Notes: generated by a model from the sequence alone, not told the origin. Positions 15,594-40,894 are shown, counted from the stretch's first letter. The stretch: DNA of 64,000 nucleotides from Wujia sp. (GCA_045543915.1 JAZPXZ010000037.1:5665-69664), one strand, 5' to 3'. Numbers and translations: made by a program.

Positions 15594-18398
15594 TTATTCT
15601 TCTCTCTTGGCTTTCTTTACATATGTAGCACCCAAACCACACATAATCATAAGCACAAATACTAACATCATCTGGCTGTCATCCCCTGTAGCAGGACTAC
15701 CAACCGGAGTTGTATTATTTGCAGTCTTCTCGGTAGCTTTACACACTTCACAAGCACCATCTATATACTTATGCTTCTCAGTTTCCTTATGACCACATAC
15801 AGTACATTCTCTTGTATGTGTGCCATCCTTAGCATCAGACCAGCCACCATAGATATGGCTACACTCAGCATCAAAGAAGTATTCTGCAAATATCAGCTTA
15901 TCACCTATACCAAATTCTTTAGAGTTTATCACCTTGCCATTTACAACCACTACAACATCCTCTGCAAAGATATAGCCTTCCTTTGAATAGATTACAAAGG
16001 ATACGCCATAATCCTCATCCTCTTCAAAATAGCCATAGTAATTAAGCCAATCGTCTCCCTTTTCTATCAACCATTCCGGATTATAACCCTCAGTATGCAC
16101 TGCATAGCAGGCACCTTCAGGCACTGTAAACTGTGGTGACATACTAGAGTGTGCTCCTATTGCAGGTTCTGTCACAGTAACCTCCACTCTGTCAATAACC
16201 TTTGCGCTATCTGAGTACTCCCTAAATATGATTTTACCATCACCATTTGCTGTCATGCTTGTGTCTAAATTACCGTTTATGTATACAGCAGTTGTGCTCT
16301 TATCAAATCTGTATCCATCCTTACACCACACTTCAATACGCAGCCTATATGACTTGCCTGCCTCAAAGATTCCGGTAAATTCACAGTAATCATTATATTC
16401 AGCATCCCATTCCTGCCATGCAGCATACATTATCTCATAATCTGCATCCTCAGGAACGCTAATTTCCTCAATAGAAGCCTTCTCTCCTACCTTAAACTCT
16501 GGTACATTATTAACACGCAGCTCTGGTATGATTTTCTCGAAGTTCACTCTACAAACTGATATATAAACTAAGTCTGGCTCTACAAAGCCACTATCAGAAA
16601 AGTCTTTTCCATCTACATAGATGTTAGGATATGTATCAAATTCATAGCCGTCCTTAGGTTCAAGCTCAACATCAAGAAAATACTCGTGTTCCTTCTGGAA
16701 GGCAGTCACCTGTTCTCCTGTGTTTATATCAATCCATGTCGCGGATATAATGCTATAGTTTGCACCCTCCGGAACCTTTAATGTATCCACAGTAGCTGCC
16801 TCACCTAAGGCAGGCTCCTTAACTCCGTTTATCTCTATAGTATCAATAATTTGACGAGAAGAATATATCATATCCAGGCTAGCCCAATCGTTTCCGCTAC
16901 CGCTATTAGCATATGTTACTCCCTCTACCTCCATAGGTATAGAATCAACAAATTGGTATCCCTTATTAGGCTCTACATAAAGATGTAAAGTATAAGATTC
17001 TCTATCCTGGAAGACACCCTCTGGTATCTCTCCACTATCAGTTATAGACCAATAGCCTGTTACACTATAGTTAGCCCCCTCCGGCGCCTGAATCTCAAAA
17101 TATACACCATCAGCACCCTTGTGAATTTCCTCACCAACAACAGCCTCTGGAAGCTTATCAATGACAATCTTATCTATAGATGTCTTAAAGGAAACATGTA
17201 CAGGATTAGTAAGCTGTGCGCCTCCACCATGGAAACCTACAGGCTCTCCCCCAATCTCACCCTGTACATTCTCTGCAAAAGCATAACCTTTATTAGCATA
17301 GATATCAATAAACAAAGTGTAATCCTTGCCTTTTTCAAAGGTTCCTGTAGTATTTCCATCCTCATCTGACCAATAACAAGTGGCAGTATAGTTGCTTCCA
17401 GCTGGAACAGCAACTTCCTTACTTTCAGCTGTGAAGTTCTCACCCACCACTGGTTCAGGCAAGCTATCCTTACTTATTACAACCTCTTCTATAAGAATTG
17501 AATGATCTACGAGAATTTCAGCATATCCATATTGCTTATCAAAGCTATAATTTCCAATATCTACATTGCCGGAAAGAGTTGCATTTTCTCCGAAAACATA
17601 GCCTTCCTTTGGATATATTTCAATCCATAGCTCATATGATTTTCCTTCCTCTATAACACCTGAAGTATCTGCAACTTCGTAAGCCTTATTTTCATAATCA
17701 TATGCATGCCAATAGCCCTTTGCAATATAGCCCTCTCCCTCTTCTATGTAATTGGCAAGAGATTCACCTATATTACCCTCTGGTATATTAGAAAGAACCA
17801 CACTGTCTACAACGCCATTATAATATGGCATCACTAATACATCTACATATGCAAGTCCATCCACAAGGCTTCCACTAACAGTTTCTCCATTCACTATATA
17901 TATTGCGTCGGCAGCAATGGTATAACCCGTCTTTGGTGTTATGACAAGATAAGCCCAATACTCATAATTATACTCAAATTTGTAGCCAGCATCTAATGGC
18001 CAACTACCTGCGTCCTCCCAATCAGACCGTGGTGAAACCTGATAATTGGCTTCCCACGGTGCCTGACAGCTTACAGTATGATTGTCTGACCCAAGCAAAG
18101 GCAAATCAAGTGTTATCTCCACCTGGCTAATCTCTGTTCCTGCCCCATTAAGAGGAGGGTGAGTATTAATTCCCACTGTTATATTAGTCTCTGTGGTAGC
18201 AGTATCTGTATCTGCTATCTGGTCACCTGTCTCAGCTTCTACATTAACAGCATCTGTATCTGTTGCCACACTGTTAGCCTCTTCAGCCTGTGCTGCACTG
18301 ACTGTTAAAACAGGACCACCTGTCACAGAAAGCACCATAGCTAGAGCTACAGCAAAGCTACAAACTTTCCTCATTAAGTCTTTATGTAATTTCTTCAT
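15594..18398 (-). CDS. Secreted, sortase-anchored repeat surface protein (about 7 repeats of ~105 aa)
   Basis: Signal peptide; repeats with P..G..Y..W..G.F..Y.L...P..GY.F; C-terminal SPATG, hydrophobic helix and basic tail. Confidence 0.75.
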   Translation of the reverse strand: MKKLHKDLMRKVCSFAVALAMVLSVTGGPVLTVSAAQAEEANSVATDTDAVNVEAETGDQIADTDTATTETNITVGINTHPPLNGAGTEISQVEITLDLPLLGSDNHTVSCQAPWEANYQVSPRSDWEDAGSWPLDAGYKFEYNYEYWAYLVITPKTGYTIAADAIYIVNGETVSGSLVDGLAYVDVLVMPYYNGVVDSVVLSNIPEGNIGESLANYIEEGEGYIAKGYWHAYDYENKAYEVADTSGVIEEGKSYELWIEIYPKEGYVFGENATLSGNVDIGNYSFDKQYGYAEILVDHSILIEEVVISKDSLPEPVVGENFTAESKEVAVPAGSNYTATCYWSDEDGNTTGTFEKGKDYTLFIDIYANKGYAFAENVQGEIGGEPVGFHGGGAQLTNPVHVSFKTSIDKIVIDKLPEAVVGEEIHKGADGVYFEIQAPEGANYSVTGYWSITDSGEIPEGVFQDRESYTLHLYVEPNKGYQFVDSIPMEVEGVTYANSGSGNDWASLDMIYSSRQIIDTIEINGVKEPALGEAATVDTLKVPEGANYSIISATWIDINTGEQVTAFQKEHEYFLDVELEPKDGYEFDTYPNIYVDGKDFSDSGFVEPDLVYISVCRVNFEKIIPELRVNNVPEFKVGEKASIEEISVPEDADYEIMYAAWQEWDAEYNDYCEFTGIFEAGKSYRLRIEVWCKDGYRFDKSTTAVYINGNLDTSMTANGDGKIIFREYSDSAKVIDRVEVTVTEPAIGAHSSMSPQFTVPEGACYAVHTEGYNPEWLIEKGDDWLNYYGYFEEDEDYGVSFVIYSKEGYIFAEDVVVVVNGKVINSKEFGIGDKLIFAEYFFDAECSHIYGGWSDAKDGTHTRECTVCGHKETEKHKYIDGACEVCKATEKTANNTTPVGSPATGDDSQMMLVFVLMIMCGLGATYVKKAKREE

Positions 18399-24055: not shown

Positions 24056-25315
24056 CTATTCTTCCTGCTCTTTATTATTATCCTGCTCTGTAGTCTCTGT
24101 GTCCTCCTTGGTTCCACCTAAATTCTTAGGAGTAAACATTCTTCGTCTTGACTCCATAAGAGGAACCACATCATCAGACACTTCCTTCTCATCTATATTG
24201 ATTTTCTTATACCTAAGCTTTCTAAGCACCAGACTTCTAATGTATGCGTAGAGTACAGAAACTAGAGGTATAAACAGGAACATTCCTGCAACACCCATAA
24301 GGTCTCCACCTACCAATACTGCCAAAAGCACCCAGATTGCTCCAAGTCCTATGTCTCCACCCACAAGTCTTGGGTAGATGAAATAGTTCTCAATAAACTG
24401 AAGTACAAAGAACAATATGATAAACCATATTACCGTCGAAGGTGACTCCACCAATATAAGAAATGCACTGATAAAGCAACCTATAAATGCACCAAATACA
24501 GGTATAAGCGCCGTAAAGGCCATAAGCACACCAACAGTAAGTGGATAAGGCATACCAAGAAGGCTCATGGCTATAACAAACATACCTCCTAGGATAATTC
24601 CCTCTCTAAACTGACAAGCAAAAAACTTAGAAAATGTTGTGTTAGCAATCTTGCCAAACACCATAAGCTCATCTGCTGTATGCTCCTTAAACATAGCATA
24701 GATTATCATCTTTGTCTGTCTTCCCAGCTTTTCCTTCTGAGCAAGAATATACATAGAGAATACTATTCCTATGAAAATATTAACCACGGCACTAACTATG
24801 GATGAGAATATATTTACTGTGGTAGACAGAAGGGTACTTCCACCGTCCTTCATAAATAATCCCAGCTCTTCCCAGTTAATTTCAATACTGTTTATAGCCT
24901 CAGTAATCTCAGGGAACTTAGTTGTGTACTGAAGAATCCAGGCCTTTGTTCTATCCACAAAGCCTGGCAGCTTATCCTTTATCTTGGTGATAGTATCACC
25001 TACCTCAGGTATTACTACAAAAAGCACAAGCACTAATACACACACTGCAAGAACATAGGCCAAAATCATACTAATTGGTCTCTTATACTTATAGAGGCTG
25101 CCGGACTTTTTCTTGAAAAGTCCGTCCTCTATGCTCTTCATTAAAATATTAATAACAAATGCAATAGCGCAGCCAATTAAAAACGGAAGTAAAAGTGCAA
25201 TAACCTTCTTAAGCAAATACACAATAACACCTGTATGATTAACAAGATATATTAGCACTACTGTAAATGTTATAACACTTAGCACCATTTTCATGGCCTG
25301 CTTCTTTTCCTTCAT
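24056..25315 (-). CDS. AI-2E family transporter
   Basis: Multi-TM; PFLIGCAIAF, ALIPVFGAFIG, QFIENYFIYPRLVG. Confidence 0.88.
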   Translation of the reverse strand: MKEKKQAMKMVLSVITFTVVLIYLVNHTGVIVYLLKKVIALLLPFLIGCAIAFVINILMKSIEDGLFKKKSGSLYKYKRPISMILAYVLAVCVLVLVLFVVIPEVGDTITKIKDKLPGFVDRTKAWILQYTTKFPEITEAINSIEINWEELGLFMKDGGSTLLSTTVNIFSSIVSAVVNIFIGIVFSMYILAQKEKLGRQTKMIIYAMFKEHTADELMVFGKIANTTFSKFFACQFREGIILGGMFVIAMSLLGMPYPLTVGVLMAFTALIPVFGAFIGCFISAFLILVESPSTVIWFIILFFVLQFIENYFIYPRLVGGDIGLGAIWVLLAVLVGGDLMGVAGMFLFIPLVSVLYAYIRSLVLRKLRYKKINIDEKEVSDDVVPLMESRRRMFTPKNLGGTKEDTETTEQDNNKEQEE

Positions 25316-25372: not shown

Positions 25373-27424
25373 CTAGTTTTGGATAAATGGTGTAGCTGTG
25401 CTACCAGGAGCCTCTCCTCCCTTTGGAACAAGAACAATCTGGATAGCCTCAAGTCTTCTTGAAAGTCCTGCTGTTCCGGCATCAGCACCGTTCTTAGCCC
25501 AATCAAGCCATCCATAAGTCTGAGCATGAACTCTATAATATACATCATAGTGCTCTGCTACTTCACCGTAAAGCTCAATACGGATACCCTCAAGTCTCTT
25601 TGACTCGCCCTCTGTTCCGGACATTTCACCATCCTTTGACCAGGTTTCAGGCAAATCCTTATCTCCCTGCCAGCCATAGGTTTGTACATGAGTTGTATAT
25701 CTGATGCCACCCTCGTAGCCTGTATCACCAAGAGCAATCTCGATACCCTCAAGTCTCTTTGACTTACCACTGGTTCCACTGATTGAGCCATCATATACAA
25801 AGCCCTGCCAGCCATAATTCTGTACATGAGTTCTGTAGTTTACAAGACCCTCTGTAGCGTTCTCAGATGTAGAATTTAAGCCGTAATCAACATATGAGTA
25901 GCCAATTAATCCATCAGGATACTCTCCTACTGGTAGTACTAAAATTTCGATACCCTCAAGTCTCTTTGACTGTCCTGCTGTACCTGCAGGCTGTCCATTC
26001 TTAGCCCAACCAAGCCAGCCATAGTTCTGAGCGTGTACTCTATACCAAATGTTATACTTGTCCTTATCTGCTCCGGTAAGGTCTATCTGAATTGCCTCAA
26101 GTCTCTTTGACTCACCACTTGTTCCACTAAACTCATCATCAGTTCTCCACTCTTCTTCCCAGCCGTAGCCCTGGATGTGAGTTCTATATGTAACACCTAA
26201 ATCATACTCATTAAAGTTATTAGCAAGCTTTATCTGGATGCCCTCAAGTCTCTTTGACTCCCCAGAGGTTCCTGACATAAAACCATCACACATATAGCTC
26301 TGCCAACCGTAGCTCTGAACATGAGTCTTGTACTTTACACTTATTTCATCTTCATGCTCATCGATATAATAATCTGAAGGTCCCATAGGATACTTCTCAT
26401 AAAAATCAGCTGTATTATATGGGTACTCTCTTAAGTGATCTACATCATCTTCGAAGGTATCCATATCAGTGAGGAAATAGTAGAACTCATAATCCCCATA
26501 ACCATCTGTATCATCCCATGTAGCGTCTATATTATAGTAGTACTGTCCCATCTGAACTATGTTCCATGCGTGACCACCTACCATATCACCGTACTCATCA
26601 TATACAGTCTCACTAGTTACAACTCTTGTTGAAATCTCCATCTCTCTAAGAAGTCTGTACATCGCTGTAGCATAGCCCTGACATACGGCAGAACCATCTA
26701 TAAGAGCACCATATGTTGAAAAGCACCCACTAGTAAAATAGTAATCATAGTCTACAGTCTCCATAATATAGTGCTGAGCAGCGAAAGTCTTGACAACATC
26801 ATGCTCGTTCTCCCAGCCATCAAGCTCATCATTTAAAATTCTCTTAATCTCTGCATCTACAGCTGCCTCCTGGGATGCAGTTGAAAAATAATCCAAATAT
26901 AATGCATAATAGTAGCAATCATCTGCATCATATACATCACCATCTACTCCAGCCCAGTTCCAGTAGAGATAATCTCCCTCATATGCATTGGCAGTCTCTT
27001 CCATTGCTACATCGAAGATTACATCAAACATATCATTGTGACCATCTTCGTAGTTATATCCACCCTTATTTACATACATGAATACAACTCCATCTCTGTC
27101 TACCATACATTCTCTAAGATATTCTGCCGCAGACTTAATAGATGAAAATGTTGGCGCATCAACCATAGCCGCCTCATCATTAATAGTGTCTGGGTCAACA
27201 TTTGTCTCCCCTGCAGCCTCCATAGCCTTGTCGGATGCCTCCTTTGCAGCTTCGTAAGAGTCAAAAGCTTCATTGTAAGCAGTAACGCTGCCTAGCTCAG
27301 TGCTTGTTCCATCTGACTCTTTTGCATACACACCCTTAACTGGTGCGAACAACCCTACCAAAAGTAGGAAGCTAAGTAAATATGGCAATACATATTTTAC
27401 TTTTCTTTGATAAAATCCTTTCAT
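25373..27424 (-). CDS. Secreted transglutaminase-like (Cys-His-Asp) protein with 6 ChW repeats
   Basis: Signal peptide; AVCQGYA, GHAWNIV, NIDATWD; six Y.TH.Q.YGW...GT.G.SKRLE repeats. Confidence 0.85.
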   Translation of the reverse strand: MKGFYQRKVKYVLPYLLSFLLLVGLFAPVKGVYAKESDGTSTELGSVTAYNEAFDSYEAAKEASDKAMEAAGETNVDPDTINDEAAMVDAPTFSSIKSAAEYLRECMVDRDGVVFMYVNKGGYNYEDGHNDMFDVIFDVAMEETANAYEGDYLYWNWAGVDGDVYDADDCYYYALYLDYFSTASQEAAVDAEIKRILNDELDGWENEHDVVKTFAAQHYIMETVDYDYYFTSGCFSTYGALIDGSAVCQGYATAMYRLLREMEISTRVVTSETVYDEYGDMVGGHAWNIVQMGQYYYNIDATWDDTDGYGDYEFYYFLTDMDTFEDDVDHLREYPYNTADFYEKYPMGPSDYYIDEHEDEISVKYKTHVQSYGWQSYMCDGFMSGTSGESKRLEGIQIKLANNFNEYDLGVTYRTHIQGYGWEEEWRTDDEFSGTSGESKRLEAIQIDLTGADKDKYNIWYRVHAQNYGWLGWAKNGQPAGTAGQSKRLEGIEILVLPVGEYPDGLIGYSYVDYGLNSTSENATEGLVNYRTHVQNYGWQGFVYDGSISGTSGKSKRLEGIEIALGDTGYEGGIRYTTHVQTYGWQGDKDLPETWSKDGEMSGTEGESKRLEGIRIELYGEVAEHYDVYYRVHAQTYGWLDWAKNGADAGTAGLSRRLEAIQIVLVPKGGEAPGSTATPFIQN

Positions 27425-27455
27425 TTTTTCTCCTCCTTATATATTTATTATCCAT

Positions 27456-29501
27456 TTACTGGATGAAAGGCTTTGCTATGCTTCCAGGGGCATCACTACC
27501 CTTAGGAAGAATTACTATCTGAATGGCCTCAAGTCTTTTTGACAGCCCTGCAGTTCCCGCATCGGCTCCATTTTTGGCCCAATCTAACCATCCATAGGTC
27601 TGAGCATGCACTCTATAATACACATCATAGTGCTCTGCCACCTGACCATAAAGCTGGATTCGAATACCCTCTAGTCGCTTGGACTCTCCACTTGTTCCAG
27701 CCATAGCTCCATCTGACGGCCAGGACTCAGGGCTATCCTTATCTCCCTGCCAGCCATAAGTCTGTACATGGGTGGTATATCTAATTCCACCTTCATAGCC
27801 GGTATCTCCCAGGGAAATATTTATTCCCTCAAGTCTTTTGGATAATCCGCTGGTTCCACTTATGGAGCCATCGTACACATATCCCTGCCAGCCATAATTT
27901 TGTACATGAGTTCTATAATTAACAAGCCCCACTGATGGGTCAGTGGACTCTGAGTTAAAGCCATAATCCACATAGGAATAACCAAAAAGTCCCACAGGCG
28001 TCTCACCCTTTGGCAAAACCTGAATCTGAATGCTTTCAAGACGCTTGGACTGTCCTGCCGTACCGGCCATCTGGCCATTTTTAGCCCAACCAAGCCAACC
28101 ATAGTTTTGAGCATGAACTCTATAATAAATGTCAAATTCACCTGCATCAGCCCCTGTAAGCCTTATCTGAATTGCCTCCAGTCGCTTGGACTCTCCAGAG
28201 GTTCCACTCATGGCTCCATCCTTCTTCCACTGGCTCTCCCAGCCATAGCTTTGGATATGAGTTCTATATTCAACTCCAAGCTGATAATCACCAGTATTGG
28301 CAAGGGCTATTTCTATGCCCTCCAGTCGTTTGGACTCTCCAGAGGTTCCGCTAATCATTCCATCATATCTAAGCTCCTGCCAGCCATAATTTTGAACATG
28401 GGTCCTGTAATTAACTCCTACTGAATTCCTGCAAGTCTCATAGTTATAGGCTGAAGGACCCATAGGATAATCAGCGTGGAATTCATCGGTGTCGTATTCT
28501 TCCCCTCTTCTGTGATTTCCGTGGTATATAAAATCATAATCATCTGGTAGAAAATATTGCCAATTGGCCTCTGCTCTTCCGGCATCCCAGGTGGCATCCA
28601 AGTTATACCAATAGTTTCCCAGCTTTACTATATTCCAGCCATGACCTTCATTGGCCACAACTCTTGTCTCTATTCCCATCTCTCCCAACAATCTATACAT
28701 AGATGTGGCAAAGCCCTGACACACAGTCTCGTGGTTAATTATTCCGCTGTAGGTGGAGTGATTGGCCACACTTTGTTCGTACTCATAGGTGGCTGTCATC
28801 CAGCTATATACCATCCTCACATTTTCGTAATCAGGAAAATTTTCCCAGCCGGCAAACTCCTCACTAAGAAGTCTTTCTACCTCTGCATCAATTATACGCT
28901 CCTGCTCATAGGTAGACAGGTAGGTTGGGGAAATTTCAAATAAATACCCATCTTCAGTCTCAGTGTAAGTGATTCTTGCTCCACCAAAATTCCACAGAAG
29001 ATAGTCCCCCTCTACATAGTTCCCTGTATGCTTAAATGCCTCCTGTCTAATACTGTGGTACATATCTGTGGCTATGGCCTTATGGATATCCTTATCCCCT
29101 TCCTCATCATAGCCCAAAGCATAATAATAGTCATACAGCTCATTCCACTGGTCAGAATTATTATAGGTTAACTGAAAATAGGACTGCCTGTTTACCATTG
29201 CGGCTCTATAATAATCTCCCGCTTGGCTGGCAGTGGTAAATGTAGTACTGCCATATACAAATGGGTTGGCATCAGTTAGATCATTTTCCGAAGCTTCAGC
29301 AGAATTCTGTCCGGCAGCCTCAACAGCCTCCTCATAGGAGTCATAAGCATACTCATTATAGTCGTAGATGAGCTTCTCATTAGAGCCATCCTGAGTTTCA
29401 TCTGCATAACTTAGTACATACGGGCAAATCACAGCTACGAGCAAAATCAGCACCAATAGCTTAGTCCCTATTAATTTTTCATATGTATTATTCTTCTTCA
29501 A
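27456..29501 (-). CDS. Secreted transglutaminase-like protein with 6 ChW repeats (paralogue)
   Basis: TVCQGFA, GHGWNIV, NLDATWD; six ChW repeats. Confidence 0.85.
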   Translation of the reverse strand: MKKNNTYEKLIGTKLLVLILLVAVICPYVLSYADETQDGSNEKLIYDYNEYAYDSYEEAVEAAGQNSAEASENDLTDANPFVYGSTTFTTASQAGDYYRAAMVNRQSYFQLTYNNSDQWNELYDYYYALGYDEEGDKDIHKAIATDMYHSIRQEAFKHTGNYVEGDYLLWNFGGARITYTETEDGYLFEISPTYLSTYEQERIIDAEVERLLSEEFAGWENFPDYENVRMVYSWMTATYEYEQSVANHSTYSGIINHETVCQGFATSMYRLLGEMGIETRVVANEGHGWNIVKLGNYWYNLDATWDAGRAEANWQYFLPDDYDFIYHGNHRRGEEYDTDEFHADYPMGPSAYNYETCRNSVGVNYRTHVQNYGWQELRYDGMISGTSGESKRLEGIEIALANTGDYQLGVEYRTHIQSYGWESQWKKDGAMSGTSGESKRLEAIQIRLTGADAGEFDIYYRVHAQNYGWLGWAKNGQMAGTAGQSKRLESIQIQVLPKGETPVGLFGYSYVDYGFNSESTDPSVGLVNYRTHVQNYGWQGYVYDGSISGTSGLSKRLEGINISLGDTGYEGGIRYTTHVQTYGWQGDKDSPESWPSDGAMAGTSGESKRLEGIRIQLYGQVAEHYDVYYRVHAQTYGWLDWAKNGADAGTAGLSKRLEAIQIVILPKGSDAPGSIAKPFIQ

Positions 29502-29519
29502 TTTATCCCTCCAGGATAG

Positions 29520-31526
29520 CTAACCCTCTATGCTAGGCTTATCTGTGGCACCTGGTGCTACTCCACCCTTTGGTACCAGCTTTATCTCTATTCCTTCAAG
29601 TCTTCTTGACAGGCCACTGGTTCCTGCCATCTCACCATTACATGCCCAATCAAGCCAGCCATAGCTTTGCACATGAACTCTGTAATAAATATCATATTCC
29701 TTGGCGATTTCTCCATCCAGCTTTATCATAATACCTTCAAGGCGCTTAGATTCTCCGCTGGTTCCACTCATATCTCCGCTTACCTTCCAGTCTGTCTCCC
29801 AGCCGTAGGTTTGAACATGAGTTTTATATAACACATCTCCATTAAGGTTACTATTCAATCTAATCTTTATGCCTTCTAATCGCTTAGACTCTCCATTGGT
29901 TCCACTCATGGCTCCGTCTGCCACAAAGTCCTGCCAGCCATAGGTCTGAACATGAGTGGCATAATTAATGCTTCCACTGTATGGTGTAACAAATGGTCTG
30001 GCTGTAGGCACTCCCGGGTCTGCACCTTTTGGAACCACCACAATATTTATAGCCTCAAGTCGCTTGGAGTAGCCTTCCGTTCCTGCCATCTGACCGTTTT
30101 TCGCCCAGTCAAGCCATCCATAATTTTGGGCATGAACTCTGTAATACACATCATACTTATCCTTGTCCTCACCAGTTAGCTCTATACATATGGCCTCAAG
30201 TCGCTTAGACTCACCGCTGGTTCCCGACATCTTTCCATCATAAACCCAATCCTGCCAACCATAGGTCTGGACATGAGTCCTATATCTTATTCCAAGGCTT
30301 TCGTTACCTGATACAGCTATCTCTATTCCTTCAAGTCTCTTAGAAAGTCCTGAGGTTCCCGACATCTTTCCATCAGTTACAGGCTCCTGCCAACCGAAGG
30401 TTTGCACATGAGTTCTATAGGAAATAGTTATGTCCTCCGCCAGATTCTCCACCACCGGATTATTGTAGGTTGGATCCTCAACCTCCATTTTAGAACGGTA
30501 CCAGCTTCTAATAAAATTACCTGCTGTTGTAAGGTCCTCTGTAGTCCAATCACTGGTTTTGCTGCAACTATTTTTTATAAGGGATGAGCTTCTCCAGTCA
30601 TTGCTTAAGCTCCATACACAGTAGCTGACATTGTACTTATCGCAGCGATTCATCCACTCTGTCGCCTTGGTAAGGTCTACGTTTCCATCACCATTTGCCT
30701 CAGAAAGACCAAACTCTGTAACAAATACAGGAAGCTTATATGTGTCAATAGCTGTTCCAATCTTCTCAGTTATCCACTGATTATGAGATGGGTCTGACGC
30801 ATAAAAATGAAATGCATACATAATATTAGAATAACCAGTTATAGGATCCTGTCCCGGCTCGTAAAGATGTCCCTGGCTACCAAGCTGTGACCAGGTAGGT
30901 GTTCCAACTATAATTATGGCATCACTGTCATACTGTCTTATTATTGGAATTATCTCTAAAGCATAGGCCTTTATATCCGACCAGCTACAGTTATTTGGCT
31001 CATTACAAATCTCATATATAACATTTTCCTGATTCTTATATGTAGAAGCCATCTCAGCAAAAAAGCTCTTAGCCTGATCCTTGTAGGTCTGAGGATTACC
31101 GTCACTTAGAATATGCCAATCAATAATTGCGTACATGCCAAGATTTGTGGCGTACTCCACGCCCTTTTTTACCTGATTCTTCATGTTGTCAGCATTACCC
31201 TGACAGTAGCCACCACCTTCAGTATACATGGCAAGTCTGATGCAATTTGCACCCCAATCATCACGAAGTGTCTCATAGGCATCCTGATTGTTATACTGTG
31301 AAAACCACTGAAGTCCATGAGTGCTTACTCCCCTAATTTGAAATGGCTGACCATATTGATCTGTAAGCTGAGTCCCATTTACAGACAATCTTCCATGGGT
31401 TGCAAATGGAGTTGCTCCCGTGGCCCCTGCTTTTACAAGGCTACCCTCTAAGCTTGAAAAGCTCATAGCAAATATTAGTATTGCCACAAGTAATATATTA
31501 AATATTTTTCTGATTTTCCCTGCCAT
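29520..31526 (-). CDS. Secreted GH5 endoglucanase-like glycoside hydrolase with 6 ChW repeats
   Basis: GVSTHGLQW, IIDWHILSDGNP, YEICNEP (acid/base), FVTEFG (nucleophile); likely start ATG 31526. Confidence 0.88.
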   Translation of the reverse strand: MAGKIRKIFNILLVAILIFAMSFSSLEGSLVKAGATGATPFATHGRLSVNGTQLTDQYGQPFQIRGVSTHGLQWFSQYNNQDAYETLRDDWGANCIRLAMYTEGGGYCQGNADNMKNQVKKGVEYATNLGMYAIIDWHILSDGNPQTYKDQAKSFFAEMASTYKNQENVIYEICNEPNNCSWSDIKAYALEIIPIIRQYDSDAIIIVGTPTWSQLGSQGHLYEPGQDPITGYSNIMYAFHFYASDPSHNQWITEKIGTAIDTYKLPVFVTEFGLSEANGDGNVDLTKATEWMNRCDKYNVSYCVWSLSNDWRSSSLIKNSCSKTSDWTTEDLTTAGNFIRSWYRSKMEVEDPTYNNPVVENLAEDITISYRTHVQTFGWQEPVTDGKMSGTSGLSKRLEGIEIAVSGNESLGIRYRTHVQTYGWQDWVYDGKMSGTSGESKRLEAICIELTGEDKDKYDVYYRVHAQNYGWLDWAKNGQMAGTEGYSKRLEAINIVVVPKGADPGVPTARPFVTPYSGSINYATHVQTYGWQDFVADGAMSGTNGESKRLEGIKIRLNSNLNGDVLYKTHVQTYGWETDWKVSGDMSGTSGESKRLEGIMIKLDGEIAKEYDIYYRVHVQSYGWLDWACNGEMAGTSGLSRRLEGIEIKLVPKGGVAPGATDKPSIEG

Positions 31527-31706
31527 AGTAATCTCCTTTTTTATAAATAAAATGATTGTAAAAAGGGTATAGTTTCGCACTATAATATTTCATTATAGCA
31601 AGTCTTTTTATTTTTATCTACCTAAAAATTAGATTAAAACTTTAACATTTTTATTTTATGTGATAAAATCACTATAATTGGAGATTTTTGTGGAGGAGGT
31701 TTTAAT

Positions 31707-32246
31707 ATGGGAAGAAAAGCATCTAAGGCAGTTGACAACATATATTACATGGCAAGAAATACCGCTGCACAGGAGGATGAGACCTACTCAAGCCGTGAAA
31801 AGGCTGCAGAAAAGCTAGGTATCGAGCGTAGCCGTCTAGCCAGGATTGAGCTAGAGCAAATCGAGCCTTACGCAGAGGAGGTTGATGTTATGGCCTGTGC
31901 ATACAAGGCACCACAGCTTTGTACTGACTACTGTAATAACATTTGCCCTATCGGCATTAGAAAGCTTGAGGAGCAAGCCAAGGCTAGGGAGCCGGAAAGC
32001 ATAGAACGACTTGTACTTAAATTCTTAAGCTCAACCCAGAGTATGGAAAATATTTCTAAGATGTTAGTGGAGATAACCCAGGACGGTAGAGTGGATAACG
32101 ATGAGATTCGAGATTTGCAGGATGTGTTCGAGGCTATGGATACTGTGTCCGCAAACCTTGACGCCATTAAGATGTGGATTCTTACAGATCCGAAGCTAAA
32201 GCCTTTCTTCAACTTCGATGGAGATACCCTGAGATTTAACCAGTAA
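31707..32246 (+). CDS. XRE-type HTH regulator with a phage-regulator-like C-terminal domain
   Basis: SREKAAEKLGIERSRLARIE HTH; YCNNICPIG; ITQDGRVDNDE tail. Confidence 0.65.
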   Translation: MGRKASKAVDNIYYMARNTAAQEDETYSSREKAAEKLGIERSRLARIELEQIEPYAEEVDVMACAYKAPQLCTDYCNNICPIGIRKLEEQAKAREPESIERLVLKFLSSTQSMENISKMLVEITQDGRVDNDEIRDLQDVFEAMDTVSANLDAIKMWILTDPKLKPFFNFDGDTLRFNQ

Positions 32247-37204: not shown

Positions 37205-40200
37205 TTATTTTTGATTAAAGGTTAATTTTTCTTCCTCTTCTATGTAGAAGGTAATGTTTCCTGAGTAGCTTGTATTATCGCCCTCTACATTCCACTCACC
37301 TTCACCAAAGCTGTATGGAGTATTAGCCTGAAGCTTAACCGCCACACCTGCTGGAATCACACCCTGCTTAGTCCACTCTGATGCAACCGATATTGTGGTG
37401 GTAGTCATATTACCTGCAACATCCCATACCTCTATAGTGTATTCTGTAACACCACCCTCAGACAAAAGAGTAAGAATGTTGTTCTGTGTAATCAACTCAT
37501 TTGCAGCTATTTCCTTACCATTCACCACAACTCTAGTAAGATTATCATCCGTCAAGGCTATTTCCAGTTTGTCTCCATAATATACCGTATCATTTACAGC
37601 CCCTACAGAAGGTGCCACAAGGTCCACATACAAGCTCTCCAAAAGCATTCCAGCTGTTTGCTCACCGGTTTCCTTGTTCATCAGGTAAACATACTTATTC
37701 TCAGTAGATGAATTAATAGTCAACTGCTCCTTGTAGTCCTTTCCAAAGATATCTGATATGAGATATCCATCCTTTGCCTTTATAACTATCTCTGAGGTAT
37801 AATACTGATTTTCTCCCTGTGTTCCCTCTATAGCATATGGGTTTTCAGGCATTGCAAGATAGCTTATAGTGAACTCATCTGTCACTGTCACTTCTTTGTA
37901 AATACCCACAGCTTCAAATACTGCTTTAGCAACATATTCTCCCACTGCAGTAGGCTTTACAGTTGTATACTTAGAATCATCAGCACCTGCCACCTTGTAG
38001 TATATAGTTGCATTCTCAACGCCGTTAGTATTAGAGCCTATAATAGGATTAACATTTACACCACATATCACATCTAATACTTCAAGAGTACCTACACCAT
38101 TCTCATAATCCTTAATGGCAAATTCATCTGTTGCCACAGCTTCCTTGTAATATGGAACAGATGCAAATGTAGCTCTTACCACATAGTTTCCTATATCCTG
38201 TGGTTTTGAAGTTGTATACTCTGAATCATCCTGCCCCTTAAGCTTATACTCTATAACAACATCACTAGTTCCGTTAGTTGATGATTCCACAATCGGCTCG
38301 TATGACTGTCCATAGTACACATCATCAACCTTTACAGAGCATGAACCTGTCTCATACTCTTTAATTGCGAATTCATCTGTTACCACAAGCTTATCATATA
38401 CAGGTGTTGCAGGGAATGTTGCTCGCACTACATACTCCCCAATCTCCACCGGCTTGTCAATCCTATATGCAGAATCATCCTCTGCTTTTTTCTTATACTC
38501 TATTACAGGCTCATCAGTATTTGTTTCTGAGCTGTAGCTTACACTGATATCAGTTCCCACATATACATCTTCTACAGAAATCTCACCAACACCCTGCTCT
38601 AGGGCCTTTATCTCAAATGTATCATCAGCTATAAACACATCATACATATAGGTAGCAGCAAAAATTGCTCTTGCCTCATACATACCCACAGCTGTAGGAA
38701 TTGTTGTTGTATACTCAGTCTCACCCTGAAGTCTATATTCTACTGTTACATTCTCAATTCCATTCTTAGTTGAATTGACAACCGGAAGGATGCTTGTTCC
38801 AACATACACATCCTGTATATCAAGAGTTCCATCTCCTGTCTCAAGAGCCATAATATCAAATGTACCTACTAATTCAAGCACATCATGAGACTCTGTAGCC
38901 GGATAAGTTACTCTTATGTTATATGCGCCCACCGCTGTAGGCTCTGTTTCGTTATATGCATCCACACCTTCACTTTGTAGCTTGTACTCAACTACAGGCT
39001 CAACACCTAGGTTTGTAGTTGTTGAGTACTGTGGCTCAATCGGCGTTCCAACATATACATCTTCTACTGAAACCTGTCCTGTACCCTGTAGGTACAATAT
39101 GCTAAATGTAGTTTCATCTATAGCTTCCTTATACTCTTCAGTTTCAGGATAAACTACCTTTGCATTATACTCACCAACTGCAGTTGGAACATCTGTATTG
39201 TAGGCCTCTTCTCCTTCACTTTGAAGCTTATAATAAACTGTAGGGGTCATTTCTTCATTAGTTGTGGAACTATACTGTGGATTCAAAACCTCTCCGAAAA
39301 ATATATCAGCAACTGTGATTAATGCCAAGCTGTCCATTTTTTCTAATATAGAGAAATCGCAGGTCATAGTAATTTCATTGTAGTGTCCTGTAGCAGGAAT
39401 ATAAAGCTTAGCTGTATACTCACCTATAGCCTCTGGAACATTAATTGTAAAATCGTCCTCTCCCTTTATGGAATATGTAATTTCAGCCTGATCTATGACA
39501 GTATTATTAGTTGTAGAGGAATACTCTGGTTCAATAGTTTGACCTTCATAAATGTTAGGAATATTAAAGGTTGCTACACCTTCTTCTAAATCCTTAACAA
39601 TGAAATCAGCTGTTTCGCTGTATGCTGCAAAATTATAGTTGGCATCGTAGGAAACCTTAACAGTATAATTTCCTGCGGTGGTAGGTGCAGTTGTACTATA
39701 TGTATCGCTGCCACGAACTGCATATTCAATAGTTGGGTCACCTTCATAATCAGAGGTTGATACTGTTGGTTTAATCTCATCATTAACATAGAAGCTTTCC
39801 GCCATGGTAACATCTACTGTACCAGGTGCAAGCTCTGTAAGGTCCGGTAAATCAATCACTATCTCACTTACCTCAGTGCCCTGGGCAGCCAAGGTATAAT
39901 CTAAAGAAAGTACATTATCTACTAAGCTTGTACTTATTGTTCCATTACCGGATGTTTTTGTTACGCCATAATTAGTTCCTGTTGGAGCACTATAACCTGG
40001 AAGTCTCCTGTAAGTAACTGTAGGAACAGCCTCTTCATACCAATACTTATTGCCTGATGCACTATCTAAAACAAGCTCCCAACCGTCGCCAGGATTAACA
40101 GTAACCTTACATCCGTAGTTTGATGCTATGGAGCCTGAGGTGATATTATATACATATCCACTATAACTGTAGTCATATGAACCTGTATAACCAGGTGCTT

Positions 40201-40792
40201 CATAATCGCATACTAAGTTAACATCTCCATCTGTTTCTACATAAGTATTAGGAAGTACAAATACATATTCCGTCTTAGAACAAGCAGCTTGATCAAGAAC
40301 AAGCTTGTCTTCAACTATATTTCCATCTAAAGCATAATAGCCACTTGTAATATTTGTTATTTCTATTGTGCCATAGGTACCCACACAGCTATCATCGATA
40401 TTCAAAACGGTTCCATTTGCAACTAAATTGTTAATATAACCCTTATCATTTTTAATAGTTGAGCCTGTCATCAAAGGATCCTGAACATAAACTGTACCAT
40501 TTATCGAGCCCATTGAATTAAGCTCAAGTGTAGCTGATCCACCACCTTCTCCATCCCCCAAATATACATCGCCTGCTATAGACGTTTGCACTGTCATTGT
40601 AACCGTGGTATTGGTTTCATTGGGTGATATTATATAAGAATCTGATGATGCACTTGAAATCACCGTGTCTACCTCAACGAGTATGGGATCTGCTGCATTG
40701 ACCTCAATACATCCAATTCCTATTACATTAATCGCTATTATTACCGTTAATAATATAGCTACTACTTTGTGAATACTCCTTGCAATTTTCAT
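37205..40792 (-). CDS. Large secreted acidic protein with 8 MBG/Ig-like repeats of ~82 aa
   Basis: RBS GGGAGG before ATG 40792; signal peptide; repeats V.DVY.G..I.P...S.TN...EYK......PT.VG.Y.VRA.F. Confidence 0.75.
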   Translation of the reverse strand: MKIARSIHKVVAILLTVIIAINVIGIGCIEVNAADPILVEVDTVISSASSDSYIISPNETNTTVTMTVQTSIAGDVYLGDGEGGGSATLELNSMGSINGTVYVQDPLMTGSTIKNDKGYINNLVANGTVLNIDDSCVGTYGTIEITNITSGYYALDGNIVEDKLVLDQAACSKTEYVFVLPNTYVETDGDVNLVCDYEAPGYTGSYDYSYSGYVYNITSGSIASNYGCKVTVNPGDGWELVLDSASGNKYWYEEAVPTVTYRRLPGYSAPTGTNYGVTKTSGNGTISTSLVDNVLSLDYTLAAQGTEVSEIVIDLPDLTELAPGTVDVTMAESFYVNDEIKPTVSTSDYEGDPTIEYAVRGSDTYSTTAPTTAGNYTVKVSYDANYNFAAYSETADFIVKDLEEGVATFNIPNIYEGQTIEPEYSSTTNNTVIDQAEITYSIKGEDDFTINVPEAIGEYTAKLYIPATGHYNEITMTCDFSILEKMDSLALITVADIFFGEVLNPQYSSTTNEEMTPTVYYKLQSEGEEAYNTDVPTAVGEYNAKVVYPETEEYKEAIDETTFSILYLQGTGQVSVEDVYVGTPIEPQYSTTTNLGVEPVVEYKLQSEGVDAYNETEPTAVGAYNIRVTYPATESHDVLELVGTFDIMALETGDGTLDIQDVYVGTSILPVVNSTKNGIENVTVEYRLQGETEYTTTIPTAVGMYEARAIFAATYMYDVFIADDTFEIKALEQGVGEISVEDVYVGTDISVSYSSETNTDEPVIEYKKKAEDDSAYRIDKPVEIGEYVVRATFPATPVYDKLVVTDEFAIKEYETGSCSVKVDDVYYGQSYEPIVESSTNGTSDVVIEYKLKGQDDSEYTTSKPQDIGNYVVRATFASVPYYKEAVATDEFAIKDYENGVGTLEVLDVICGVNVNPIIGSNTNGVENATIYYKVAGADDSKYTTVKPTAVGEYVAKAVFEAVGIYKEVTVTDEFTISYLAMPENPYAIEGTQGENQYYTSEIVIKAKDGYLISDIFGKDYKEQLTINSSTENKYVYLMNKETGEQTAGMLLESLYVDLVAPSVGAVNDTVYYGDKLEIALTDDNLTRVVVNGKEIAANELITQNNILTLLSEGGVTEYTIEVWDVAGNMTTTTISVASEWTKQGVIPAGVAVKLQANTPYSFGEGEWNVEGDNTSYSGNITFYIEEEEKLTFNQK

Positions 40793-40864
40793 ATGTACCC
40801 TCCCTAGTATCAACTCTAAAAAAACATCCAACCAGTTTGGTAACTCATTTTGAGTAACCTTTTT

Positions 40865-40894
40865 ATAATACACCTTTTTTGTATGCATTGTCAA
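40865..40894 (-). promoter_or_regulatory. SigA promoter of the large repeat-protein gene
   Basis: TTGACA-18bp-TATTAT. Confidence 0.6.

Follow-up and report, generated by a model that had tools for sequence, protein, structure and literature searches.

In a 64,000-nucleotide stretch of DNA from Wujia sp. (the window), a gut Lachnospiraceae bacterium, three tightly packed, co-oriented genes lie on the minus strand at positions 25373–31526. They encode a GH5 enzyme and two transglutaminase-like (TGase-like) proteins, TG2 and TG1, and each protein carries six ChW repeats at its C-terminus (ChW6 module). The best explanation, which we consider probable, is that these are three independent exo-enzymes that would leave the cell through the Sec pathway, after which their C-terminal ChW modules would tether them non-covalently to the wall of the producing cell. 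The trio is a real arrangement, yet it is an ordinary example of a known design; tandem fusions of glycoside hydrolases with ChW have been known since the Clostridium acetobutylicum genome (PMC3044671). Our results refine the accepted picture and leave current understanding unchanged.

Three secreted enzymes with a double-triplet ChW module

The stop-to-stop open reading frames (ORFs) of the trio span 25373–31580, and the start of the GH5 gene was placed at ATG 31526, which is preceded by an AAAGGAG ribosome-binding site. The GH5-ChW6 gene (29520–31526, minus strand, as for all features of the trio) encodes 668 residues with a signal peptide, a GH5 endoglucanase domain that resembles subfamily 2, and the six ChW repeats. 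The TG2-ChW6 gene (27456–29501; 681 residues; TTG start 6 nucleotides after GGAGG) and the TG1-ChW6 gene (25373–27424; 683 residues; ATG start after AGGAGG) each encode a signal peptide and a TGase-like domain followed by six ChW repeats. We read the signal peptides of all three proteins by eye from the sequence. Each N-terminus shows a basic n-region, approximately 16 hydrophobic residues and an A-x-A-like c-region (VYA/K, SYA/D or VKA/G), in agreement with the signal peptides reported in the initial annotation of this DNA.

The catalytic domain of the GH5 protein was located at 30600–31361 (Pfam envelope), and its match to PF00150 (E 1.3e-63) covered profile positions 2–270 of 272. In GH5 enzymes, the catalytic pair consists of an acid/base Glu in an N-E-P motif and a nucleophile Glu about 90–100 residues later. 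Both residues, which the initial annotation had already reported, are present as E176 (ICNEPN, NEP motif) and E271 (FVTEFG, TEFG motif). The closest PDB sequences to the domain were the Bacillus-type GH5 endoglucanases 6gjf, 3pzt, 1h11 and 2cks (E 1e-92 to 1e-73). Judging from these solved relatives, the GH5 protein is a predicted endo-beta-1,4-glucanase of a subfamily-2-like type, and at the cell surface it would cleave beta-glucan or cellulose from the diet.

The ChW6 modules were assigned using Pfam to 29529–30437 in the GH5 protein, 27459–28427 in TG2 and 25376–26350 in TG1. Each protein of the trio contains six PF07538 repeats (E 4e-101 to 8e-109; 331–355 bits against a cut-off of 22), and the GW and GT.G.SKRLE motifs are invariant. 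We compared the repeats by position, using every repeat of the 13 proteins in the Wujia sp. genome that have exactly six. Repeats 3 and 6 were 68–72% identical, repeats 2 and 5 were 63–66% identical, and repeats 1 and 4 were 55–59% identical; all other pairs showed 48–56% identity, whether taken within or between proteins. This position-specific similarity with a period of three indicates that the ChW6 unit is an A-B-C triplet present twice, and the two triplets noticed initially in each protein are thereby borne out. PMC5817068 credits Sullivan 2007 with a triplet grouping of ChW repeats, which agrees with the A-B-C pattern. In addition, a single ChW triplet stands alone in a membrane protein of this genome that carries an FHA domain. 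All three proteins had also been described as ending in PKG..PG....PF. This ending is exact in TG1 and TG2; the GH5 protein ends in PKGGVAPGATDKPSIEG, and its PF form is found after the first triplet.

The ChW6 module of the GH5 protein was modeled with AlphaFold from a 13-sequence alignment. The model was all-beta, with a predicted local distance difference test score (pLDDT) of 88.3 and a predicted template modeling score (pTM) of 0.55, and a disordered linker (residues 143–153, pLDDT below 50) separated the triplets. The pTM value fits two rigid bodies on a hinge. Each ChW6 would consist of two compact all-beta domains, one for each A-B-C triplet, which may permit bivalent attachment. PDB sequences searched with a ChW6 profile gave no match, and a Foldseek search of the model against the PDB gave no fold match below E 0.06. 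Meanwhile, a Foldseek search against predicted viral structures (BFVD) yielded five significant matches to the ChW6 model, including a PlyB-like endolysin, a lysin and a lysozyme. These matches covered one triplet (133–151 residues) with a root-mean-square deviation of 2.0–3.5 Å and E values of 2.5e-9 to 5e-5. At the sequence level, tblastn of the module against phage genomes detected only two faecal phage contigs, both unannotated.

ChW modules across the genome and their probable role

The initial annotation had recommended a census of ChW proteins. We searched the Wujia sp. assembly (2.95 Mb, 111 contigs, 98% complete) and found 103 ChW matches in 19 stop-to-stop ORFs. Several of these ORFs are cut by contig ends; we therefore give the count as at least 17 proteins, and the module is used genome-wide. 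ChW arrays end contigs C28, C47 and C88, and C47 and C88 begin with an identical 194-residue fragment of three repeats, indicating that the repeats break the assembly and that the ChW gene count is approximate.

The partner domains of ChW included three peptidoglycan enzymes, namely Amidase_3 (muramoyl-alanine amidase), NlpC/P60 peptidase and YkuD L,D-transpeptidase. The other partners were CAP, a second GH5 with Big_2, GHL10, a solute-binding protein and a 3236-residue Big_2 protein. Further ChW proteins comprised a papain-type peptidase with a lectin-like domain, a third TGase-like protein in which ChW6 is N-terminal, and three proteins whose partner domains have no family assignment. The FHA membrane protein (C18:67919-69745, minus strand) has a cytoplasmic FHA domain, one transmembrane helix (residues ~171–192), the single external triplet and an unassigned C-terminal domain; this topology places ChW outside the membrane. 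Such a protein might couple phospho-threonine signalling to the condition of the wall. The module of the GH5 protein was 62–64% identical to the TG modules, 64% identical to the CAP-linked module and 63% identical to the GHL10-linked module. That is, it is equally close to other modules of the genome, and ChW6 is not private to the trio.

ChW is listed among the non-covalent cell-wall binding repeats (PMC5817068), and reviews name amidases, GH25 and GH73 muramidases, NlpC/P60 and M14 peptidases and L,D-transpeptidases as its partners (PMC5817068, PMC6403190). The ChW-type domain of Lacticaseibacillus casei phage CL1 binds many lactic acid bacteria, and it binds better after surface polymers have been removed with trichloroacetic acid (PMC10610939); the authors took the stronger binding after this treatment as binding to peptidoglycan. 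The ChW-like C-terminus of the endolysin of lactococcal phage AM12 displays proteins on Lactococcus lactis (PMC6700490). We also considered Enterococcus faecalis AtlE and EpaU as ChW cases and rejected them; the papers concern GW and DUF5776 repeats, and these proteins serve as analogies only. The peptidoglycan-enzyme partners, the fold matches to phage lysins and the literature together support ChW as a wall anchor, and by analogy a non-covalent cell-wall anchor is the best-supported role for it. The evidence favours the view that ChW6 acts as the general wall anchor of this organism for most of its surface enzymes.

Other surface anchors were searched for with profiles in the same genome. 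SLH, CWB2 and cohesin domains were not found in it at 98% completeness. CWB1 also gave no match in the Wujia sp. genome, but the control genomes were equally without a match. A PF00404 (dockerin) match is absent from all three trio proteins according to Pfam. One dockerin-like match (37 bits) occurs elsewhere in the genome, in a 610-residue ORF at C86:20080-20244 (plus strand).

Across sampled Lachnospiraceae, ChW was present in 14 of 120 genera, and its distribution was patchy, with a few large expansions. First-look counts of ChW candidates in 30 congeners fell into two groups, 6–32 and 58–301. Seven of the eight congeners that carry a GH5-ChW6 orthologue belonged to the group with higher counts, the exception being G127 (31); these are candidate counts only. 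This distribution suggests that the ChW expansion is specific to one subclade of the genus.

We also examined the idea that the trio belongs to a wall-polysaccharide locus and rejected it; rmlC is on another contig, C82, and neither GT2 nor Bac_transf was found on contig C37. Elsewhere, three ChW genes do have a Bac_transf or GT2 neighbour at a distance of up to ~3 kb, where ~0.6 would be expected by chance (a rough estimate). These are YkuD-ChW7 (C1:22347-25358), a 1236-residue ChW6 protein (C16:30167-37534) and a single-repeat ChW ORF (C84:92567-94481).

The TGase-like proteins and the slot of the trio

Transglut_core (PF01841) matched TG1 at 26525–26794 with 31.6 bits and TG2 at 28593–28835 with 26.4 bits, compared with a Pfam gathering cut-off of 23. 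In NCBIfam, the two proteins gave a partial match to NF045980, a family of mycoplasma TGase-related lipoproteins; the score was far below the cut-off, and TG1 and TG2 are therefore not members of that equivalog. The intact Cys-His-Asp triads that had been reported initially were located at C248/H285/D300 in TG1 and C261/H287/D302 in TG2, and an alignment of 24 homologues of the same architecture showed the triad columns to be invariant. The TG1 triad aligns with the triad region of Streptococcus pyogenes TglA, which was the only PDB sequence match. The AlphaFold model of full-length TG1 (pLDDT 83.4, pTM 0.72) matched, in Foldseek, S. pyogenes TglA (9crn, E 1.8e-7), a TGase (4xz7, E 2.8e-5) and a putative cysteine protease of Cytophaga (3isr, E 7e-4); weak matches were obtained to eukaryotic transglutaminases and to the pseudomurein endoisopeptidase PeiP (8z4f, E 0.2–0.3). 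On the basis of the model, TG1 and TG2 are predicted papain-fold Cys-His-Asp enzymes. They would act on an extracellular substrate, most likely as peptide or isopeptide hydrolases and less likely as cross-linkers. Our literature search found no paper on the function of S. pyogenes TglA.

A database search with residues 1–370 of TG1 found 304 relatives of the TGase-like domain. The closest relatives (58% identity, metagenomic) have the same architecture as TG1, and distant ones carry dockerin, SLH, CWB2, CWB1, Listeria-Bacteroides repeats (Flg_new), LRR, fn3 or Big_2. Individual homologues were confirmed to have dockerin, three SLH, three CWB2 or Flg_new at the same C-terminal position as ChW6; one with dockerin was 36% identical over residues 73–352, triad included. 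These architectures mark the TGase-like catalytic domain as a cassette that is sent to the surface by different anchors across lineages. Such anchor swapping supports, in its general form, the plug-in tag proposed in the initial annotation. The part of that proposal that stands is an interchangeable localisation module, found on at least 17 proteins and exchanged for other anchors; its likening to dockerin gives way before the peptidoglycan-enzyme partners, the endolysin fold and the wall-binding literature.

We compared the slot that holds the trio in ten congeneric or closely related genomes, with G000 denoting the Wujia sp. genome itself; the related loci are those of uncultured gut Lachnospiraceae, from ruminants among others. 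The slot is bounded on one side by rsmI, often with a conserved 179-residue ORF, and on the other side by a gene for an AI-2E family transporter. In the window, the transporter gene (24056–25315, minus strand) follows TG1 by 57 nucleotides with its own ribosome-binding site, and the 179-residue ORF (31707–32246, plus strand) is divergent, has no Pfam match and shows 78–94% identity to its counterparts beside the slot in related genomes. The slot contains GH5 and two TG genes in G000 and G132 (metagenome-assembled genome SIG302), GH5 and one TG gene in G123 and G127, GH5 alone in G125, G137, G144 and G143 (the last with only two ChW repeats), and TG alone in RGIG8543 and RGIG6221. The 179-residue ORF stands beside the slot in relatives with TG or with GH5 and TG; where GH5 and rsmI are immediate neighbours, it is absent. 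The pairing of GH5 and TGase-like genes is thus recurrent and not obligatory, which argues against a dedicated three-enzyme machine. The surface enzyme system inferred initially for the three genes is not upheld, as the GH5 module resembles the TG modules no more than it resembles others and the pairing varies between congeners.

The single TG copies in relatives resemble TG2, and TG1 therefore looks like a later, more diverged duplicate. The trio probably arose in this variable slot by the addition of a GH5-ChW6 gene beside a TGase-ChW6 gene and the duplication of the latter. ChW6 modules clustered by partner enzyme (GH5-linked, 67–91% identity; TG-linked, 63–82%; across the two groups, 57–65%), giving no sign of module exchange between GH5 and TG genes. 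Chimeric modules were sought as traces of cassette loss mediated by recombination, and none were seen.

The number of nonsynonymous substitutions per site (dN) between G000 and G132 was 0.29–0.36 for the TG N-terminal domains, 0.14 for the TG ChW6 modules, 0.12 for GH5 and 0.01–0.09 for the flanking genes; the TG region (25373–29501) was compared with L047:5903-10001, and synonymous divergence was saturated, making dN/dS ratios unreliable. In terms of dN, the TGase-like N-terminal domains evolve 3–5 times faster than the flanking housekeeping genes and GH5, with the triad kept. The paralogues TG1 and TG2 were 79% identical in their ChW6 modules, and orthologues were 81–82% identical; the corresponding values for the N-terminal domains were 40% and 57–59%. 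This pattern is suggestive of gene conversion between the TG1 and TG2 modules; a stronger constraint acting on ChW would account for it just as well.

The three genes are separated by 18 nucleotides (GH5 stop to TG2) and 31 nucleotides (TG2 stop to TG1), and each has its own GGAGG-type ribosome-binding site. A promoter-like site at 31592–31620 on the minus strand, TAGATA-17-TGcTATAAT, matches the consensus in a TG-extended form, and no other good one precedes the cluster on the coding strand. A scan of the coding strand found no terminator-like site between GH5, TG2 and TG1 or before the AI-2E gene. Judging from the spacing, a single promoter ahead of the GH5 gene probably serves all three genes. 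Elsewhere in the window, two large ORFs among housekeeping genes, at 37205–40894 (minus strand, 1229 residues) and 15594–18398 (minus strand, 934 residues), had no Pfam match at E 0.001.

Alternative readings and comparison with known systems

Several points weigh against three independent enzymes held on the wall and transcribed together. The AM12 anchor was not recovered in the wall fraction released by lysozyme and mutanolysin (PMC6700490), and the ligand may thus be something other than peptidoglycan itself. In this genome, glycanases and a solute-binding protein also carry ChW, and a glycan ligand shared with the diet is possible. The Transglut_core scores of TG1 and TG2 are marginal, barely over the cut-off, and demonstrated activity for any member of this TGase-like subfamily was not found in the literature searched. 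In addition, promoter-like matches in the region are no more frequent than expected from shuffled sequence, and with no terminator-like site between TG1 and the AI-2E gene, the bounds of the transcription unit are undefined.

Among the alternatives, the one that survives best takes TG1 and TG2 as peptidoglycan endopeptidases or isopeptidases of the autolysin type, which would act on the cell's own wall in a role unrelated to the cellulase, with the clustering reflecting the history of an insertion hot spot for ChW genes. We consider it unlikely, although many ChW partners in the genome are peptidoglycan enzymes, the TGase-fold PeiP is among the weak fold matches, some homologues bear the wall anchors SLH and CWB2, and in some genomes the slot contains only one of the two, GH5 or TG. 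The homologues with dockerin would sit on a cellulosome, away from the wall, and such genes rise 3–4 fold on cellulose (PMC2930009). Moreover, none of the best fold matches (streptococcal TglA, a TGase and a putative cysteine protease) is a known wall hydrolase, and the rapid evolution of the N-terminal domains would be unusual for housekeeping autolysins.

ChW could instead be a carbohydrate-binding module for a plant or dietary glycan, holding the enzymes on fibre and not on the cell. This reading would suit the ChW modules that two GH5 enzymes and one GHL10 protein carry in Wujia sp., the presence of ChW on tandem mannanases in C. acetobutylicum (PMC3044671) and the occurrence of GH5 genes in all 24 congeners searched (24/24). 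A plant-glycan ligand is nevertheless ill-suited to Amidase_3, NlpC/P60, YkuD, solute-binding and FHA membrane proteins and to phage lysins, and the ChW-type domains of phages bind bacterial cells (PMC10610939, PMC6700490); we regard this reading as quite improbable. Least credible of all is a dockerin-like protein-protein tag by which the glycanase and the TGase-like enzymes would come together, independently of cohesin, in an extracellular complex of their own: ChW6 does take the C-terminal position of dockerin in homologous TGase-like proteins, tandem dockerin-bearing genes of this kind are induced on cellulose in Ruminococcus flavefaciens (PMC2930009), and PMC5817068 cites a protein-protein role among the original suggestions for ChW, but no candidate receptor protein is known and no cohesin was found in the genome, the module is common to at least 17 unrelated proteins including peptidoglycan enzymes and, outside this genome, to phage endolysins, which need a wall and not a scaffold (PMC6403190), the GH5 and TGase modules (62–64% identical) are no closer to each other than to other modules of the genome, and the two kinds of gene stand separately in related genomes. 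Wall anchoring of independent enzymes remains our preferred reading.

The trio is a clean natural example of anchor-module swapping, with ChW, dockerin, SLH or CWB2 on one enzyme family, and within one small genome no fewer than 17 exo-proteins share a double-triplet ChW unit of fixed form. The genus is thus a handy source of modules for two long-open questions, the ligand and the structure of ChW. The fast-evolving TGase-like family repeatedly accompanies cellulases in gut fibre degraders. A broader idea, which we put forward with little confidence, is that this subfamily is a conserved, fast-evolving accessory of fibre-degrading surface systems in gut Firmicutes under any anchor, and that the ChW triplet is a structurally unsolved fold binding a wall polymer, possibly a polysaccharide of the wall and not peptidoglycan. 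If this were true, an extracellular role of TGase-like proteins would be tied to glycan degradation, with dockerin in Ruminococcus, ChW here and SLH or CWB2 elsewhere, and the ChW ligand could be identified using these modules.

The closest parallel is in R. flavefaciens FD-1, which has ten dockerin-bearing TGase-like proteins; four are encoded in tandem, and the fifth gene of that cluster encodes an LRR protein (PMC2930009). Their C-terminal parts are conserved and their N-terminal parts variable, and the genes are 3–4 fold up on cellulose (PMC2930009). As in the trio, ORF01263-01266 of that strain are tandem head-to-tail genes for proteins with a signal peptide, a homologous TGase-like catalytic domain and a common C-terminal localisation module, and the asymmetry between conserved C-terminal and variable N-terminal parts recurs in TG1 and TG2. 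The difference lies in the module, which is a dockerin binding cohesin scaffolds in R. flavefaciens and ChW6 in Wujia sp., where cohesin was not found in the genome.

The streptococcal TGase-like proteins (TglA, 9crn; 4xz7) match the N-terminal domain best in both sequence and fold and have an aligned Cys-His-Asp triad. However, identity is 13–16% over the aligned region, and the ChW module is absent from the streptococcal proteins. In C. acetobutylicum, the mannanases CA_C0539 and CA_C0540 are tandem ChW proteins (PMC3044671), and PMC5817068 refers to Nolling 2001 and Sullivan 2007 for the ChW proteins of that species. These are secreted enzymes with repeats in triplets and tandem glycanase-ChW genes, as observed here; in contrast, the trio comes from a gut Lachnospiraceae with a 2.95-Mb genome, in which at least 17 proteins bear the module; the repeats form a fixed (A-B-C)x2 array, and the partners are GH5_2-like and TGase-like.

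The ChW-type domains of phage endolysins (CL1, PMC10610939; AM12, PMC6700490) belong to the same repeat family, share the predicted triplet fold and bind Gram-positive surfaces. They are single domains of lysins that act from within at lysis, whereas the modules described here are double and belong to predicted Sec-exported enzymes. Finally, the CWB2, SLH and choline-binding (CWB1) enzymes of Firmicutes resemble the trio in their logic, the non-covalent attachment of many exo-enzymes to a wall polymer through a module of repeats, which often come in threes. Their repeat families and folds are unrelated to ChW, which no solved structure matches.

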